Of a stretch of 64,000 nucleotides of DNA, positions 1-4,458 are shown in pieces. This DNA is from a virus. The stretch is from positions 11,522 through 75,521 of IMG/VR virus record IMGVR_UViG_3300050019_000176; one strand, written 5' to 3'. The notes below the pieces were generated by a model that saw only the letters and a program-made list of their open reading frames with translations, ran no database searches and was not told the DNA's origin. The stretch's first letter is position 1, and each line of letters begins with the position of its first letter. The position numbers were made by a program, and so were the translations under genes.

Positions 1-38
1 TCGTAGGAGCAGCACCGTCACCAGACGATAAACCCGGC
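1..38 (-). tRNA. Partial tRNA (5' half), probable anticodon UAC (Val), truncated by window edge
   Basis: Minus strand GCCGGGT-TT-ATCGTC TGGT GACGGT-G-CTGCT CCTACGA: acceptor 5' strand, 6-bp D stem with 4-nt loop, start of anticodon arm. Confidence 0.55.
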
Positions 39-39
39 A

Positions 40-129
40 TGGTCCCCGGCCCAGGTGCCGACCCTGGATCTAGCTCCGATCTGGAGAAACGGTTATAGGC
101 CGTCTTGCGGCGCCGGCCGCCCACCGGGG
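40..129 (-). tRNA. Atypical tRNA with anticodon UAU (nominally Ile, reads AUA), long variable arm
   Basis: Acceptor CCCCGGT/GCCGGGG + ACCA; D arm GCGGC CGGC GCCGC; loop CC-TAT-AA; V arm CTCC..GGAG; T arm CCAGG GTCGGCA CCTGG. Confidence 0.75.
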
Positions 130-665
130 GAAGGTTGATCCTTCAATACAATCAAGCCATCATGGATCTCTCCGTGACAGTTAGCGCATGTGAGCACGCA
201 CTTGTCTAGTTCTTTTTTTATCCGAACCCAAGATGCCGTGACTCGGCTGATCGAAAAATCCTTTTGCGATTGGTCACTGTGGTGGAACCCTAATGAGCGC
301 AAGCACTTAGCATACCCGCAGAATTCGCACGCCCCTCCCTTGTATTCTACCGCCTTGAGCTTTAATCGCTTCCTCCACGCAGTTACCCCACGAACCGATC
401 TAGCTTTTGGATCGGAGGATTGTCTGCTCGCCACCCGCGCGTTATGGCGGCATTGATTGCTGCAATATCGGGAGCGCCTTGTAGAGGGGGAACCGCAGAC
501 TGCGCACTTCCCTTCCGGTTTCCGTTTTGGAAACTTCTTGTTATTGTACTTGGCGGCGCATGACTTATTGCAGAACTTCTTAATCCGAACATCCCGCGCA
601 GACTGCCCATCCATCGCCACAATCTTTCGTCGACATGATCGGCAGTAGTGTTGATTCGAAGCCAT
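93..665 (-). CDS. HNH endonuclease with N-terminal Zn-binding repeats
   Basis: CxxC / FCNKSC / YCSNQC motifs, then KGGACEFCG..LGFHH..ELDKCVLTCANCHGEIH; start MASNQH follows TGT-TAATAT-7nt; stop lies in the anticodon loop of the downstream tRNA. Confidence 0.88.
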   Translation of the reverse strand: MASNQHYCRSCRRKIVAMDGQSARDVRIKKFCNKSCAAKYNNKKFPKRKPEGKCAVCGSPSTRRSRYCSNQCRHNARVASRQSSDPKARSVRGVTAWRKRLKLKAVEYKGGACEFCGYAKCLRSLGFHHSDQSQKDFSISRVTASWVRIKKELDKCVLTCANCHGEIHDGLIVLKDQPSPGGRPAPQDGL

Positions 666-688
666 CAATAATATATTAACACGAAAAC

Positions 689-777
689 TGGCTGGCGGAA
701 GAGGATTCGAACCTCCATGCGGGATCACTCCACGGCAGATTAACAGTCTGCTGCCTTACCAGTTAGGCGATCCGCCA
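689..777 (-). tRNA. tRNA-Asn(GUU) with 18-nt variable arm
   Basis: Acceptor TGGCGGA/TCCGCCA, loop CT-GTT-AA, TTCGAAT T loop, CCA encoded. Confidence 0.92.
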
Positions 778-781
778 ATCT

Positions 782-857
782 TGGTGGGTCCAGCGGGGCT
801 CGAACCCGCACATCCCTGAGTAAGAATCAGGTACGCTGCCACTCGCGTCCTGGACCC
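782..857 (-). tRNA. tRNA-Lys(CUU)
   Basis: Cloverleaf, loop TT-CTT-AC, CCA. Confidence 0.9.
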
Positions 858-863
858 GAAACT

Positions 864-938
864 TGGTAGGGGTGACGCGAATTGAACACGCATCGAGAGA
901 TTGAAAGCCTCTCATCCTAACCATTAGACGACACCCCC
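864..938 (-). tRNA. tRNA-Glu(UUC)
   Basis: Loop CT-TTC-AA, CCA. Confidence 0.9.
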
Positions 939-939
939 A

Positions 940-1015
940 TGGCGTCCCCAGCCGGATTCGAACCGGCGATTTCTGGCGTGAGAAGCCAGCGTCCTTGCCG
1001 CTAGACGATGGGGAC
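940..1015 (-). tRNA. tRNA-Glu(CUC)
   Basis: Loop TT-CTC-AC, GGTTCGAATCC, CCA. Confidence 0.92.
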
Positions 1016-1020
1016 AAACT

Positions 1021-1095
1021 TGGCGCGGTGGACGGGTAACGATCCCGCTTCGTCTCCGTAGACAGCGGAGTGCATATCCTACCTGCCCCCACCGC
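1021..1095 (-). tRNA. tRNA-Asp(GUC)
   Basis: Loop CT-GTC-TA, G73, CCA. Confidence 0.88.
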
Positions 1096-1102
1096 GCAAA
1101 CT

Positions 1103-1138
1103 TGGTCGGCCCGCCGGGATTCGAACCCGGAGGGATAC
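1103..1138 (-). pseudogene. 3' half of interrupted tRNA-Arg(CCG)
   Basis: GTATCCCT-CCGGG TTCGAAT CCCGG-CGGGCCG-A-CCA; the acceptor strand pairs with the orphan 5' half at 1667-1714. Confidence 0.85.
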
Positions 1139-1139
1139 T

Positions 1140-1215
1140 TGGTGATCGTGGCTGGATTCTAACCAGCGACCTCTACCTTCGGAGGGCAGTGCTCTTTACG
1201 CTGAGCTACACGATC
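1140..1215 (-). tRNA. tRNA-Arg(CCG), intact copy inside the insertion
   Basis: Acceptor GATCGTG/CACGATC, loop CT-CCG-AA, T loop TTAGAAT, CCA. Confidence 0.88.
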
Positions 1216-1656
1216 AAGACCTAATACTGTAATCCATTTCCATCCACGCTCAAGAGCAGTCTTGATAGTGTGACACTTCGAACACCGAACATCACACTTG
1301 CTGATCTCTTCTTGCCGTCTGCGTTGACTCCACCCTTGCATATTCGAAACACTGGCGACCTTTTTCCCACGCACGTGATCGAATTGAAGAACGAGCGGGT
1401 TTGATTCACCACAATCTACACACGGGTGTTCACGAAAGAACGGCACCATTTCTGCGAAGAATGCTTCCATCCACTTGTCTCTCGAACGATCCGCCTTCAA
1501 GCGGTAGTATTCTTTGTTTCTCTGGTAATGATCCTTGTTATATGCCCTGTGGCATATTTTGCAGTCATCGGATCTTATGCCGCGGGATTTGTACTTGAAT
1601 GAAAACTCATCGACGTTCTGTTCTTTTCCGCAGCGACAACATGTTTTCTTAGTCAT
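1159..1656 (-). CDS. HNH endonuclease
   Basis: MTKKTCCRCG..DCKIC N-terminus; HPCVDCGESNPLVLQFDHVRG..EEISKCDVRCSKCH; start follows TGG-TATACT-7nt. Confidence 0.9.
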   Translation of the reverse strand: MTKKTCCRCGKEQNVDEFSFKYKSRGIRSDDCKICHRAYNKDHYQRNKEYYRLKADRSRDKWMEAFFAEMVPFFREHPCVDCGESNPLVLQFDHVRGKKVASVSNMQGWSQRRRQEEISKCDVRCSKCHTIKTALERGWKWITVLGLDRVAQRKEHCPPKVEVAG

Positions 1657-1666
1657 CCTCCGAAGT

Positions 1667-1714
1667 ATACCATCCTTCGGAGAGATGTGCCCTGTCCAGT
1701 TGAGCGACAGGCCG
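1667..1714 (-). pseudogene. 5' half of interrupted tRNA-Arg(CCG)
   Basis: CGGCCTG-TC-GCTC AACTGGACA GGGC-A-CATCT CTCCGAA GGATG-GTAT; no T arm follows. Confidence 0.85.
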
Positions 1715-1718
1715 AAAA

Positions 1719-1795
1719 TGGTACGCCCGCGAGGATTCGAACCCCGGTCTGATCGTTCGTAGCGATCTATCCTTTCCGGATTGGACGACGGGCGC
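1719..1795 (-). tRNA. tRNA-Arg(ACG)
   Basis: Loop CT-ACG-AA, CCA. Confidence 0.92.
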
Positions 1796-1803
1796 GCGAA
1801 AAA

Positions 1804-1886
1804 TGGTAAGCACCCACCCAGTGATTCCGACACTGGCTCTGTACCGACTCCCGCCGGTCGAGACTCCATGCCTCCCGTGGGTGCAT
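1804..1886 (-). ncRNA. tRNA-like RNA without a normal anticodon loop
   Basis: 8-bp acceptor-like stem GCACCCAC/GTGGGTGC, D-like arm, ACCGGC GGGA GTCGGT hairpin, 6-bp T-like arm, ends ACCA. Confidence 0.6.
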
Positions 1887-1895
1887 AAGCATAAA

Positions 1896-1971
1896 TGGCT
1901 GGCCGCCCAGGGTACGATCCTGGAACCTCTGCGTTCAGAGCGCAGCGCGCTGCCAATTGCGCCAGCGGCCA
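1896..1971 (-). tRNA. tRNA-Gln(CUG)
   Basis: Loop CT-CTG-AA, U1-A72, CCA. Confidence 0.92.
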
Positions 1972-1972
1972 A

Positions 1973-2046
1973 TGGCCGGGAGGGAGCGAATCGAACGCTC
2001 GAAGCTGGCTTCAAAGACCAGCGGCTTACCATTAACCTACCTCCCG
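1973..2046 (-). tRNA. tRNA-Gln(UUG)
   Basis: Loop CT-TTG-AA, CCA. Confidence 0.9.
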
Positions 2047-2049
2047 AAT

Positions 2050-2123
2050 TGGGGTGACCGATCGGTTCGACCCGACAACCTCCGGGGCCACAACCCGGCG
2101 CTCTACGTTTGAGCTACGGCCAC
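2050..2123 (-). tRNA. tRNA-His(GUG)
   Basis: Loop TT-GTG-GC, C73, CCA; atypical 6-nt T loop, no encoded G-1. Confidence 0.85.
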
Positions 2124-2126
2124 ACT

Positions 2127-2201
2127 TGGTGCCGGAAGCGGCGCTCGAATCCGCGTCACTGGCTTTTCAGACCAATGCTCTACCGTCTGAGCTATTCCGG
2201 C
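2127..2201 (-). tRNA. tRNA-Phe(GAA)
   Basis: Loop CT-GAA-AA, CCA. Confidence 0.9.
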
Positions 2202-2206
2202 GAAAT

Positions 2207-2286
2207 TGGTGGACCTCCAGAGAATTGAACTCTGCTGACTATCTTCCTTGCAAGGGAAGCGACCACCCCATGCAGTCTCGAGGCCC
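2207..2286 (-). tRNA. tRNA-Ala(UGC)
   Basis: Loop CT-TGC-AA, G3:U70 identity pair, 8-nt variable region, CCA. Confidence 0.92.
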
Positions 2287-2291
2287 AAAAT

Positions 2292-2364
2292 TGGTAGCGG
2301 GGGTCGGTGTTGATCCGACGCGGCTGGGTTTATGAGGCCAAGCTGTGAACCGTCTCTCCCCGCA
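2292..2364 (-). tRNA. tRNA-Met(CAU), initiator-like, weak anticodon stem
   Basis: Loop CT-CAT-AA, 1:72 mismatch (U:U), GCGGGG acceptor, CCA. Confidence 0.7.
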
Positions 2365-2372
2365 ATAAATTC

Positions 2373-2452
2373 TGGCATACAACCTCACGGCCCGGTATGC
2401 CGGCGGGTCGCGGCATGGACTGGAGTAGGGCTCACAGCGCCGCAGACGTCGA
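2373..2452 (-). ncRNA. Unassigned structured RNA within tRNA operon
   Basis: Two hairpins (GCGGCG..TGCCGC; GGCATAC..GGCC GTGA GGTT..GTATGCC) filling a tRNA-sized slot and ending in CCA. Confidence 0.4.
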
Positions 2453-2455
2453 ACT

Positions 2456-2529
2456 TGGTGCGTCCCCGAAGAGTTGAACTTCGATTGCTCCCCTATCGAG
2501 GGAGAGTCCTGCTATTGGACGAGGGGCGC
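2456..2529 (-). tRNA. tRNA-Ile(GAU)
   Basis: Loop TC-GAT-AG, CCA. Confidence 0.85.
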
Positions 2530-2530
2530 A

Positions 2531-2606
2531 TGGGGCCGGTGGCGGAACTCGAATCCGCGGATTCTTCCTTACCAAAGAAGCGGTGAACCATCCCACCTCC
2601 ACCGGC
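2531..2606 (-). tRNA. tRNA-Thr(GGU)
   Basis: Loop TT-GGT-AA, GCC acceptor start, CCA. Confidence 0.88.
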
Positions 2607-2611
2607 GAAAC

Positions 2612-2686
2612 TGGGGCCAGATCGGAGAATCGAACTCCGGTCACAGGGATACGAATCCTGCACTCTGCCGACTGAGCTAATCTGGC
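2612..2686 (-). tRNA. tRNA-Thr(CGU)
   Basis: Loop TT-CGT-AT, CCA. Confidence 0.9.
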
Positions 2687-2687
2687 A

Positions 2688-2762
2688 TGGAGCCGGGCGC
2701 CGAACTCGAAGCGGCCTCACTGACTTACAGGGCCAGCGCATCGCCATCTATGCTTGCCCGGC
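2688..2762 (-). tRNA. tRNA-Thr(UGU)
   Basis: Loop CC-TGT-AA, CCA. Confidence 0.88.
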
Positions 2763-2835
2763 TGGAGCGGATGGAGGCATCGAAGCCTCGTATCGACCTT
2801 GGCAAGGTCGCGCTCTACCATTGAGCTACACCCGC
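2763..2835 (-). tRNA. tRNA-Gly(GCC)
   Basis: Loop TT-GCC-AA, GCG start, U73, CCA. Confidence 0.92.
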
Positions 2836-2842
2836 AGAAACT

Positions 2843-2916
2843 TGGAGCGGACGGGGGTACTCGAAACCCCTTCTCTGGGTTGGAGGCCCAGGGCACACCC
2901 TATATACCACGCCCGC
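2843..2916 (-). tRNA. tRNA-Gly(UCC)
   Basis: Loop CC-TCC-AA, GCG start, U73, CCA. Confidence 0.9.
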
Positions 2917-2933
2917 CTTACTGCCTACACTCT

Positions 2934-2974
2934 GTTGTCAAAGACCCTGCCGCGCCTTCATGCCACTGCGCGGC
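2934..2974 (-). promoter_or_regulatory. boxB-like hairpin followed by boxA-like antitermination element
   Basis: GCCGCGC..GCGCGGC hairpin then GGTCTTTGACAAC, resembling rrn boxA (GCTCTTTAACAA). Confidence 0.65.
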
Positions 2975-2979
2975 GAACT

Positions 2980-3056
2980 TGGTCGGGGCGGCAAGATTCG
3001 AACTTGCGACCTTCTGGTCCCAGGCCAGACGGGTTAAACCACTTCCCTACGCCCCG
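2980..3056 (-). tRNA. tRNA-Pro(UGG)
   Basis: CGGGGCG acceptor, loop CC-TGG-GA, CCA; first gene of operon A. Confidence 0.92.
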
Positions 3057-3062
3057 AAAATC

Positions 3063-3091
3063 AAAAAGGCCCGAATCTTTCGATCCGAGCC
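3063..3091 (-). terminator. Intrinsic terminator (attenuator) between leader A and tRNA operon A
   Basis: GGCTCGGATC GAAA GATTCGGGCC followed by TTTTTGATTTT. Confidence 0.85.
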
Positions 3092-3120
3092 CACTGGAAA
3101 ACCGGAAATCCCAAGTGGGC

Positions 3121-3213
3121 TTACGGAGCATCGCGGGCGACTGGATTCATCGCCGGTGCGATGGGTTCCGTCCCCTGCTGCTTCCTTGTGCCGAAATGGA
3201 ATATGTATCTCAT
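3121..3213 (-). CDS. Leader peptide A, 30 aa: MRYIFHFGTRKQQGTEPIAPAMNPVARDAP
   Basis: ATG 10 nt downstream of TATACT; stop overlaps the antiterminator 5' strand; not reported as a separate ORF in the track. Confidence 0.75.
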   Translation of the reverse strand: MRYIFHFGTRKQQGTEPIAPAMNPVARDAP

Positions 3214-3250
3214 GTACGATTTCAGTATATCACGGTTTCGCCGAATGCAA
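3214..3250 (-). promoter_or_regulatory. sigma70-type promoter of tRNA operon A
   Basis: TTGCAT-15nt-TATACT with extended TG; TATACTGAAATCGTA is identical to the operon B promoter. Confidence 0.8.
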
Positions 3251-3258
3251 GCACTTTT

Positions 3259-3343
3259 TGGCGGAAGATGGCCGAATCGAACGACTCCGCTTGCGCGGAC
3301 CCCGGAATTCGAACCCGGTTGCCCACCATGGGCGGCATCTTCC
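3259..3343 (-). tRNA. tRNA-Ser(CGA), 8/4 fold
   Basis: GGAAGATG/CATCTTCC 8-bp acceptor, 4-bp T stem, long V arm, loop TT-CGA-AT. Confidence 0.88.
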
Positions 3344-3347
3344 GAAC

Positions 3348-3432
3348 TGGCGGAGAGCACCAGAGTCGAACTGGCACCCTTTCGGGGCTCCGGTTTTCCA
3401 GGCCGGCCGGGATCCACATCCCCGTACTCTCC
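3348..3432 (-). tRNA. tRNA-Ser(GGA), 8/4 fold
   Basis: GGAGAGTA/TGCTCTCC, T stem CCAG/CTGG, long V arm, loop CT-GGA-AA. Confidence 0.88.
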
Positions 3433-3439
3433 AAACTTA

Positions 3440-3524
3440 TGGCCGCGGGCGAAGGAATCGAACCCTCATCCCGAAGGAGCGCCAGTACTCAAGACTGGTG
3501 GCGGACCATCCGCCCGCGCCCGCG
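3440..3524 (-). tRNA. tRNA-Ser(UGA), 8/4 fold
   Basis: CGCGGGCG/CGCCCGCG, T stem AGGG/CCTT, long V arm, loop CT-TGA-GT, G73. Confidence 0.82.
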
Positions 3525-3525
3525 G

Positions 3526-3599
3526 TGGAATGGGGATCGGGAATCGAACCCGACATAACAGCTTTGCAGGCTGCCCTCTAGCCGATTGAGTTTCCCCAC
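3526..3599 (-). tRNA. tRNA-Cys(GCA)
   Basis: Loop CT-GCA-AA, U73, CCA. Confidence 0.9.
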
Positions 3600-3600
3600 G

Positions 3601-3671
3601 CACCCCAGCGACGATTCGAACGCCGAAAATCCGCTTTGGAGACGGACCACCTCACCATCGGTAACCGGGGC
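3601..3671 (-). tRNA. tRNA-Trp(CCA), no encoded CCA end
   Basis: Loop CT-CCA-AA, G73, abuts tRNA-Cys. Confidence 0.85.
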
Positions 3672-3676
3672 AAACT

Positions 3677-3760
3677 TGGTAGGCTCGGTGGGATTCGAAC
3701 CCACAGGGGAAAACGCTCTTGAGGCGTTTGGTTGTGCCAATTCACCTTATCCACGAGCCT
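3677..3760 (-). tRNA. tRNA-Leu(CAA), short variable region, enlarged D loop
   Basis: Loop CT-CAA-GA, A73, CCA. Confidence 0.85.
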
Positions 3761-3766
3761 AAAACT

Positions 3767-3843
3767 TGGTGCGCCGCCCGAGATTCGAACTCGGAAAAGT
3801 CAGGGCCTAAACCTGATGGATTTGCCAATTTTCCTAGCGGCGC
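3767..3843 (-). tRNA. tRNA-Leu(UAG), short variable region
   Basis: Loop TT-TAG-GC, A73, CCA. Confidence 0.88.
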
Positions 3844-3849
3844 ATAACT

Positions 3850-3937
3850 TGGTGAGTGCGGATGGATTTGAACCACCGTGGCCCCGAAGGACAGAAGGGT
3901 TACAGCCTTCCCGTTTCAGCCGCTCACGCACGCACTC
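3850..3937 (-). tRNA. tRNA-Tyr(GUA)
   Basis: Loop CT-GTA-AC, long V arm, CCA. Confidence 0.92.
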
Positions 3938-3938
3938 A

Positions 3939-3950
3939 TTGTCAAAGATC
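3939..3950 (-). promoter_or_regulatory. boxA-like element
   Basis: GATCTTTGACAA directly after the first tRNA of operon B. Confidence 0.65.
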
Positions 3951-3952
3951 TT

Positions 3953-4041
3953 TGGCGGAGAGCCGGCGACTCGAACGCCGGAGTCCCGAAGGAAGCACGC
4001 GTTTAGCAGACGCGCCGGACGGCCCACTGTCCATGCTCTCC
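3953..4041 (-). tRNA. tRNA-Ser(GCU)
   Basis: GGAGAGC acceptor, loop CT-GCT-AA, long V arm, CCA; first gene of operon B. Confidence 0.92.
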
Positions 4042-4054
4042 GAAACCTGGGCTC

Positions 4055-4153
4055 CTATAAACTCGACAGGGATGATAGGTGCCCGGACGGACACCACAAA
4101 TACTCGGCGGAGCGCCGATAGGAAAGAAATCCGCGATTGGAATTCTTGTGCAT
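4055..4153 (-). CDS. Leader peptide B, 32 aa: MHKNSNRGFLSYRRSAEYLWCPSGHLSSLSSL
   Basis: ATG 9 nt downstream of TATACT and overlapping the upstream stop (TAATG); TAG 13 nt before tRNA-Ser. Confidence 0.75.
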   Translation of the reverse strand: MHKNSNRGFLSYRRSAEYLWCPSGHLSSLSSL

Positions 4154-4458
4154 TACGATTTCAGTATAGCACGGGTACGTTCGGTGTCAAGTGGTATACG
4201 TTTCGAGGCATGGATCGGCGCAAACATGCTTCGCATCCTGCGGCGCTCCTCGGCCCACTTCGGGTCCGCCAGTTCCCGGCGCCGGTCGCGTTCATTCGAT
4301 ATTTCTCCCAACCGATAGAGAGCCTGTCCCTCCCACGAACTTTCTCCGTGATCATCTTCATCCAGCATGCCGACGCCGGCGTCGAGCAATTCCTGTTCCA
4401 GGATATAGAGTTCTGCATCCGTAAAACTTGTGACTTTTGCTTGGTAGAAGTTAGGCAT
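4153..4458 (-). CDS. Hypothetical protein
   Basis: ORF MPNFYQAK.., acidic/helical; stop overlaps leader B ATG. Confidence 0.6.
   Translation of the reverse strand: MPNFYQAKVTSFTDAELYILEQELLDAGVGMLDEDDHGESSWEGQALYRLGEISNERDRRRELADPKWAEERRRMRSMFAPIHASKRIPLDTERTRAILKS
4154..4190 (-). promoter_or_regulatory. sigma70 consensus promoter of tRNA operon B
   Basis: TTGACA-16nt-TATACT with extended TG. Confidence 0.88.

Follow-up and report, generated by a model that had tools for sequence, protein, structure and literature searches.

A phage tRNA-Arg(CCG) gene split by a two-gene cassette of an HNH-type nuclease ORF and a same-anticodon tRNA, a candidate intron-less homing element

Homing endonucleases are, to our knowledge, thought to survive in conserved genes only inside introns or inteins or beside their target, and bacterial tRNA genes can harbor group I introns that encode homing endonucleases. 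Here we analyzed a phage tRNA array in a 64,000-nucleotide (nt) stretch of DNA of peat origin (hereafter the window), the right-hand 64 kb of the 75.5-kb IMG/VR virus record IMGVR_UViG_3300050019_000176. In this array, a resident tRNA-Arg(CCG) gene is interrupted by an insert comprising an HNH-type endonuclease open reading frame (ORF) and a complete tRNA-Arg(CCG) gene, termed the spare. We consider it likely that the insert is a two-gene, intron-less homing cassette that brings along a spare for the gene it breaks. SegB of phage T4 is the closest system described. It is a free-standing GIY-YIG endonuclease encoded in a tRNA cluster and co-transcribed with the tRNAs; its Shine-Dalgarno (SD) sequence and AUG are held in a −20.2 kcal hairpin, and when the downstream tRNA-Arg matures, the message is cut so that the stop codon is separated from the last codon (PMC2330249). 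Its 27-bp recognition site takes in the T-loop box of tRNA genes; the target is a tRNA gene in relatives without SegB, and when infections are mixed, SegB promotes the inheritance of the tRNA region in which it lies (PMC2330249).

The locus in the window shows the same arrangement as in the SegB description (PMC2330249): the nuclease gene is co-oriented in a phage tRNA array, directly upstream of a tRNA-Arg, with its start in a hairpin and its stop overlapping the downstream tRNA. However, the window's nuclease is HNH-type, whereas SegB is GIY-YIG. The PHROG and Pfam matches of the ORF include no GIY-YIG family and fall into HNH and endonuclease VII families, indicating a SegB-like design rather than a member of the SegB family. 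Moreover, SegB homing replaces the recipient tRNA region by co-conversion, whereas here the split target persists and a same-anticodon spare is carried. The T5 enzymes, among which F-TflIV is classed as HNH, are likewise site-specific nucleases among phage tRNA genes, and expression control through processing of tRNA transcripts has been proposed for them; they are set apart by description, in that the portions of these accounts drawn on here mention no split target tRNA with a carried spare (PMC2330249, PMC5714182). In T4 SegF, SegG and MobE (PMC2988022), the nuclease travels with an adjacent, presumably uncuttable variant of the target, but the recipient allele is replaced there; both broken pieces persist here, giving the insertion site at base resolution. 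Intron-encoded endonucleases such as T4 I-TevI also combine a selfish nuclease gene in a conserved gene with a hairpin over the start and a possible internal promoter, whereas the cassette has neither ribozyme nor splicing and gene function would be kept by a second gene copy. The known kind is thus the free-standing homing endonuclease of phage tRNA clusters, and the new part is the split target with a carried same-anticodon spare. Full-text literature searches led to SegB, to the T5 enzymes and to broad surveys of tRNA arrays, but to no description of a nuclease cassette that splits a tRNA gene and carries a same-anticodon spare.

The array lies at the window's left end on the minus strand, and the whole record contains 30 tRNA genes. 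A near-consensus promoter (TTGACA-16-TG-TATACT, 4190–4163 (−), 11/12 matches) heads the array; it is the sole promoter-like site within 1–4400 and the likely source of read-through transcripts covering the cassette. Close phage relatives were found neither in INPHARED nor in IMG/VR through the neighboring 562-residue protein. CGG makes up 28% of the Arg codons in ten long phage ORFs. In the resident tRNA-Arg(CCG), the cassette sits in the variable loop, between positions 43 and 47, and takes the place of three bases of that loop (Table 1). The acceptor strands of the two orphan parts pair at 7/7 positions, one of them G-U, and ARAGORN calls the programmatic join of the parts a tRNA-Arg(CCG). 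Taken in isolation, the parts were uninformative in Rfam (no tRNA match for the 5′ part, T-arm-like matches only for the 3′ part), a result superseded by the intact-allele match described below. The last 19 codons and the stop of the ORF overlap the spare, the two genes fill the insert but for 14 nt and 8 nt, and no intron family is matched by Rfam in 1–4300 at E ≤ 1. The initial annotation had proposed two rejoinable halves with complementary acceptor strands, an HNH gene and a complete, divergent same-anticodon tRNA between them, and an intron-less element, all of which is borne out. The elements lie on the minus strand where it placed them, with the true insert set by the intact allele at 1670–1132. 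It had also pointed to GTAT at both junctions; this repeat is not a target-site duplication, because the insert replaced three variable-loop bases and the second GTAT is internal to the insert, 3 nt from its edge.

Table 1. Features of the split tRNA-Arg(CCG) locus, in window coordinates
Feature	Position	Strand	Description
Orphan 5′ part of resident tRNA-Arg(CCG)	1714–1671	−	44 nt, tRNA positions 1–43: acceptor 5′ strand, D arm, full anticodon arm, anticodon CCG
Inserted cassette	1670–1132	−	539 nt: 14-nt leader, HNH ORF, complete tRNA-Arg(CCG), 8-nt tail
Orphan 3′ part of resident tRNA-Arg(CCG)	1131–1103	−	29 nt: last variable-loop base, T arm, acceptor 3′ strand, discriminator A, CCA
HNH-type endonuclease ORF	1656–1159 including stop	−	165 aa, intact
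Cassette-borne complete tRNA-Arg(CCG), the spare	1215–1140	−	Called by ARAGORN; CCA encoded
Predicted hairpin	1687–1654	−	Old anticodon arm (5′ strand and loop) pairs with the insert's SD-like GGAGG and the HNH AUG
TGGTATACT, extended −10-like match	1672–1664	−	TG from target, rest from insert; read from sequence; ends 7 nt before AUG

The uninterrupted allele was identified in relatives of the array. Used as an exact query, the 29-nt 3′ part retrieved 18 loci (16 metagenome contigs and 2 contigs from Candidatus Solibacter metagenome-assembled genomes (MAGs)), and in each of them one 76-nt tRNA-Arg lies on that 29-mer, with anticodon CCG in 17 and UCG in one. The intact gene occupies the syntenic position in 18/18 loci, relatives and window sharing the gene order Gln-UUG, Gln-CUG, Arg-ACG, 4 nt, Arg-CCG, Asp, Glu. 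The orphan 3′ part is identical to it at 29/29 bases and the 5′ part at 43/44, with C31→T (window 1683) as the single difference. This traces both halves to one tRNA and not to different ones; chance resemblance is excluded because the uninterrupted gene in the 18 related loci was compared directly. The BLAST alignment of the window with every relative ends exactly at 1671, and the intact variable loop has four bases. Neither the cassette nor a homologue of its ORF is present in any of the 18 related arrays. Exact searches with the 5′ part, using a 35-mer in viral contigs and a 27-mer in metagenome and genome contigs, gave no match because of the C31→T change. The target gene is identical in 15 of the 18 loci, whereas neighboring tRNA genes show 70–85% DNA identity to the window. 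Such near-invariance across arrays argues that tRNA-Arg(CCG) function matters, and conservation above that of the neighboring tRNA genes makes this gene a suitable homing target. The arrays of L106 and L107, Candidatus Solibacter (Acidobacteriota) MAG contigs from peat, are syntenic with the window's; their binning is either a host lead or the product of mis-binned phage contigs.

Intact and occupied alleles are also found together within single samples. The window was compared with Logan contigs from four public runs, among them X1, the probable source sample. In both X1 and X3, peat runs, a contig carries the empty site: 1131 is connected to 1671 through three other bases, and the intervening 539 nt are missing. 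The occupied form is represented in X1 by an independent 612-nt unitig over 1102–1713 with zero mismatches, and in X3 by an exact 151-nt piece (1554–1704). Homologous arrays therefore display presence/absence polymorphism at one precise site, empty in 18/18 arrays and in the X1 and X3 empty-site contigs. In the window, the resident tRNA-Arg(CCG) is inactivated, with its two parts persisting as flanks of the cassette.

The layout recurs independently in unrelated phages. IMG/VR searches with the protein and with its alignment collected 87 homologous ORFs. A same-strand tRNA starts at most 60 nt from the ORF end in 30 of them, and in 21 of those 30 the stop falls inside that tRNA, often at the conserved U8-A9-R10. 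We applied a strict split-tRNA detector. To be counted, a locus needed acceptor strands matching at 7/7 positions and a T arm, its programmatic join had to be called by ARAGORN, and neither part could lie within a called tRNA. The detector returned three positives, all with the order 5′ half, HNH ORF, complete same-anticodon tRNA and 3′ half: the window itself; L003, a 333-kb AT-rich phage with an HNH protein 46% identical to the window's, in which a split tRNA-Arg(ACG) surrounds a complete tRNA-Arg(ACG); and L025, in which a split tRNA-Lys(UUU) surrounds a complete tRNA-Lys(UUU). Mismatched upstream/downstream pairs, serving as control, produced no orphan–orphan hits (0/593). Searches of viral contigs with the 3′ parts of the L003 and L025 split tRNAs, aimed at their intact alleles, matched only the loci themselves. 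In 15/28 units, the 110 nt that precede the ORF include an anticodon-loop motif with the anticodon of the downstream tRNA, compared with 17% for other anticodons (permutation p < 2e-4), and several of these upstream remnants are recognizable 5′ halves broken just after the anticodon loop. Overall, the breaks are concentrated in the stretch that separates the anticodon loop from the T arm, and the window's break, after position 43, lies a few bases 3′ of most.

Other units show related arrangements. At L029:1889–2500 and L081:1869–2532, a complete tRNA (Pro-UGG and Lys-UUU, respectively) precedes the nuclease ORF by 46–58 nt, another complete tRNA of the same anticodon follows it directly, and the upstream spacer has an anticodon-loop copy inside a hairpin. 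On the nuclease tree, tRNA identity clusters weakly (16 changes vs 19.5 in shuffles; 2/300 shuffles as low). This weak clustering is not taken as a sign of anticodon-specific nuclease lineages, since the tree is poorly resolved and the window protein does not group with other Arg-linked ones.

We then characterized the two genes of the cassette. The ORF matches phrog_2255, annotated 'HNH endonuclease', at E 4.8e-30, as well as phrogs 3106 and 4234 (HNH) and 1035 (endonuclease VII). Alignment of 49 homologues revealed invariant columns at C79, C82, D93, H94, E117, K120, C121, C125 and H129, with the Cys, Asp-His and His residues all kept in the window's protein. This CxxC...DH...CxxCH arrangement is what we take to be the pattern of zinc-bound ββα-Me nucleases such as T4 endonuclease VII. 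The AlphaFold (AF2) model has a predicted local distance difference test (pLDDT) score of 90.5, with confidence falling after residue ~140, where the coding sequence runs within the tRNA gene. Among 5.8 billion proteins the nearest match shares 48% identity, and none of the matches bears a name. The spare scores 64.3 bits in Rfam, the top score in the array, and its minimum-energy fold is a cloverleaf. It is identical to the resident tRNA-Arg(CCG) at 51/77 positions; the two differ in every stem and at many bases around position 43/44, with identical anticodon loops.

Several features at the cassette borders suggest restrained expression, which looks similar to the proposal for SegB. The initial annotation had noticed that the insert is complementary to the old anticodon arm over the start codon. 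Folding agrees with it, giving a predicted hairpin of 12 bp with one bulge at −17.9 kcal/mol (z −4.5), and 0/200 shuffles were as stable. Pairing of the SD and AUG with the old anticodon arm would thereby restrain expression. Immediately upstream, the junction-spanning TGGTATACT shares the form TGnTATACT with the −10 of the array promoter and may act as a promoter, as judged from sequence; it was not called in the promoter scan because its −35 is poor. At the other end, the stop TAG of the ORF sits in the T loop of the spare (TTAGAAT), and maturation of the cassette tRNA by RNase P would cut the mRNA ahead of the stop codon. The frame of the window ORF relative to the tRNA differs from that in L003 and L004: it misses the U8-A9-G10 stop and reads 17 codons further, to the TAG made by the unusual T loop.

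The 18/18 intact alleles, the single source tRNA and the canonical same-anticodon spare favor the intron-less homing interpretation already offered in the initial annotation, and we infer a cycle of cleavage, homing and immunity along the following lines. The tRNA-array transcript would yield the nuclease in small amounts. During co-infection with a relative bearing the intact gene, it would cut the tRNA-Arg(CCG) near the variable loop, and repair from the cassette-bearing genome would copy the cassette in, with the orphan parts and neighboring tRNA genes acting as homology arms. The broken site and the divergent spare would escape further cutting. By keeping CGG decoding, the divergent spare would allow the element to sit in a conserved gene without intron or intein. 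The founding event may have been the capture, into a break and without homology, of a donor segment carrying the nuclease gene and an adjacent, differently sequenced tRNA-Arg, with both pieces of the target left in place.

Such an element would represent a third solution to life in a conserved gene, seen here at base resolution: the conserved tRNA gene is broken and the substitute is carried by the element itself. The locus also provides an intact/occupied allele pair within the same peat samples. It suggests that selfish nucleases may help shuffle and replace tRNA genes in phage arrays, and compact nucleases with tRNA-gene targets could serve as sequence-specific tools. More tentatively, and with slightly less than even confidence, we propose that HNH-plus-tRNA units form a widespread, undescribed class of two-gene homing cassettes that invade phage tRNA genes of the same anticodon, carry the spare with them and drive tRNA turnover in arrays. 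Their expression might be gated by tRNA context, through pairing of the start codon with the orphan anticodon arm, a junction-spanning −10 that maybe gives a leaderless message, and an RNase P cut at the spare that removes the stop.

A number of observations weigh against the homing interpretation. Position 127 of the window protein, within the second CxxC, is Lys and not the Asn shared by at least 90% of homologues, and given this residue nuclease activity is not assured. There was no Pfam match at E ≤ 0.1 and no relevant match to sequences of solved structures. Structure matches were weak: in VIA-align, the ββα-Me enzyme Hpy99I reached Z 6.3 over the N-terminal zinc ribbon only, while Gme HNH, GVE2 HNH, Cap5, endonuclease VII and Cas9 HNH domains gave Z 2.8–3.4 over the catalytic half; Foldseek against the PDB returned only rows at E ~1. 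The name HNH-type is accordingly drawn from profile and motif evidence, not from structure. The spare lacks the usual G18/G19, its D loop having no GG, and its T loop has A for the usual C56. Immunity through a changed T loop finds no support, with no consistent spare/target difference in the T arm across the three split cases. Searches placed the exact cassette in no second genomic background, the nearest nuclease being 48% identical, so that the window's own copy is only putatively mobile. Finally, the shorter side of the X1 joint contig spans only 29 bases and relatives share the target, so that a related phage, and not the same strain, may be the source of the intact allele in X1.

The unusual loops of the spare, together with its divergence from the resident in every stem, also bear on a different view of the element, in which selection acts on the tRNA as cargo and the nuclease is its vehicle. 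A variant tRNA-Arg(CCG) would escape a tRNA-cleaving host defense or raise the tRNA dose, and the break in the resident gene would be a side effect. There is precedent in that phage tRNAs counter tRNA-targeting defenses, and SegB amplifies a tRNA locus (tRNA-Tyr) with which T6 escapes Septu (PMC13096335). Yet a nuclease that recognizes the anticodon loop would not tell the spare from the resident, whose anticodon loops are identical, and the cassette replaces the resident gene without adding a copy. We regard this explanation as unlikely to be the primary one, though it is compatible with a homing cassette.

The junctions raise the alternative that a one-off illegitimate recombination placed a neighboring HNH-plus-tRNA segment in the gene, with a nuclease not aimed at tRNA-Arg at all; the anticodon match would then reflect the survival of those genomes that could still decode CGG. 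Three bases were lost with no target-site duplication, and the window's cassette is known from a single background, as this account would have it. It is nevertheless made unlikely by the recurrence of the layout with anticodon matching: three different tRNAs are split, each around a same-anticodon spare, same-anticodon remnants lie upstream in 15/28 related units, and the breaks cluster in one part of the tRNA. Free-standing homing endonucleases are, in addition, described as cutting the gene adjoining their own (PMC2330249). We therefore give a one-off rearrangement a small probability, well below that of a selected tRNA cargo.

The paired acceptor strands that the halves keep could also be explained by the decay of a mobile group I intron, such as do reside in bacterial tRNA genes, or by a split tRNA that still functions with its halves rejoined or annealed. 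Still, the 14 and 8 nt outside the two genes leave no room for a ribozyme, the Rfam scan found no intron, and the insertion at position 43/44 is not in the anticodon loop. A split tRNA of the archaeal type would have long complementary leaders, but only 4–5 nt (GUAU) of complementarity lie beside the halves, and the 5′ part is already substituted (C31→T). Both variants are very improbable. A chimeric contig, conceivable in a metagenome assembly of repeat-rich tRNA arrays, can be set aside almost entirely, because independent unitigs cover the occupied form in X1 and X3, homology at the junctions is at most 4 nt and the layout recurs in other assemblies.

The surrounding array contains other unusual genes. 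The tRNA-Asn(GUU) gene at 689–777 (−) is 89 nt long with a 17-nt variable arm, and its sequence is unlike the relatives' 76-nt tRNA-Asn. On the far side of the split gene, 1806–1885 (−) encodes an ~80-nt RNA shaped like a tRNA, with an acceptor-like stem of 8 bp, a hairpin resembling a T arm and two more arms; it has no 7-nt anticodon loop, is called by neither ARAGORN nor Rfam, and is absent from relatives, in which Gln-CUG and Arg-ACG are 9 nt apart. A stretch from window 38 to 37 nt before the window start (−) is homologous to the relatives' tRNA-Val(UAC), with mismatched acceptor and anticodon stems and no ARAGORN call, and is possibly a decaying tRNA gene.

Two further nuclease ORFs lie nearby. 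A second HNH-type ORF at 665–96 (−) (phrog_2255, E 3.7e-26) runs into an unusual 90-nt tRNA-Ile(UAU)-like gene at 129–40, whose D loop measures 4 nt, whose T loop reads GUCGGCA and which has an extra variable arm. The 665–40 unit occupies the place of the relatives' ordinary tRNA-Ile(UAU), of which no remnant is left. A third HNH-like ORF (G000:C1:10757–11464 (−), 57–764 nt before the window start) encodes 235 aa with the motif DHIDGN...CGNCD. Its TAG forms positions 8–10 of the downstream tRNA-Lys(UUU), so that all three nuclease ORFs of the array stop inside the next tRNA.

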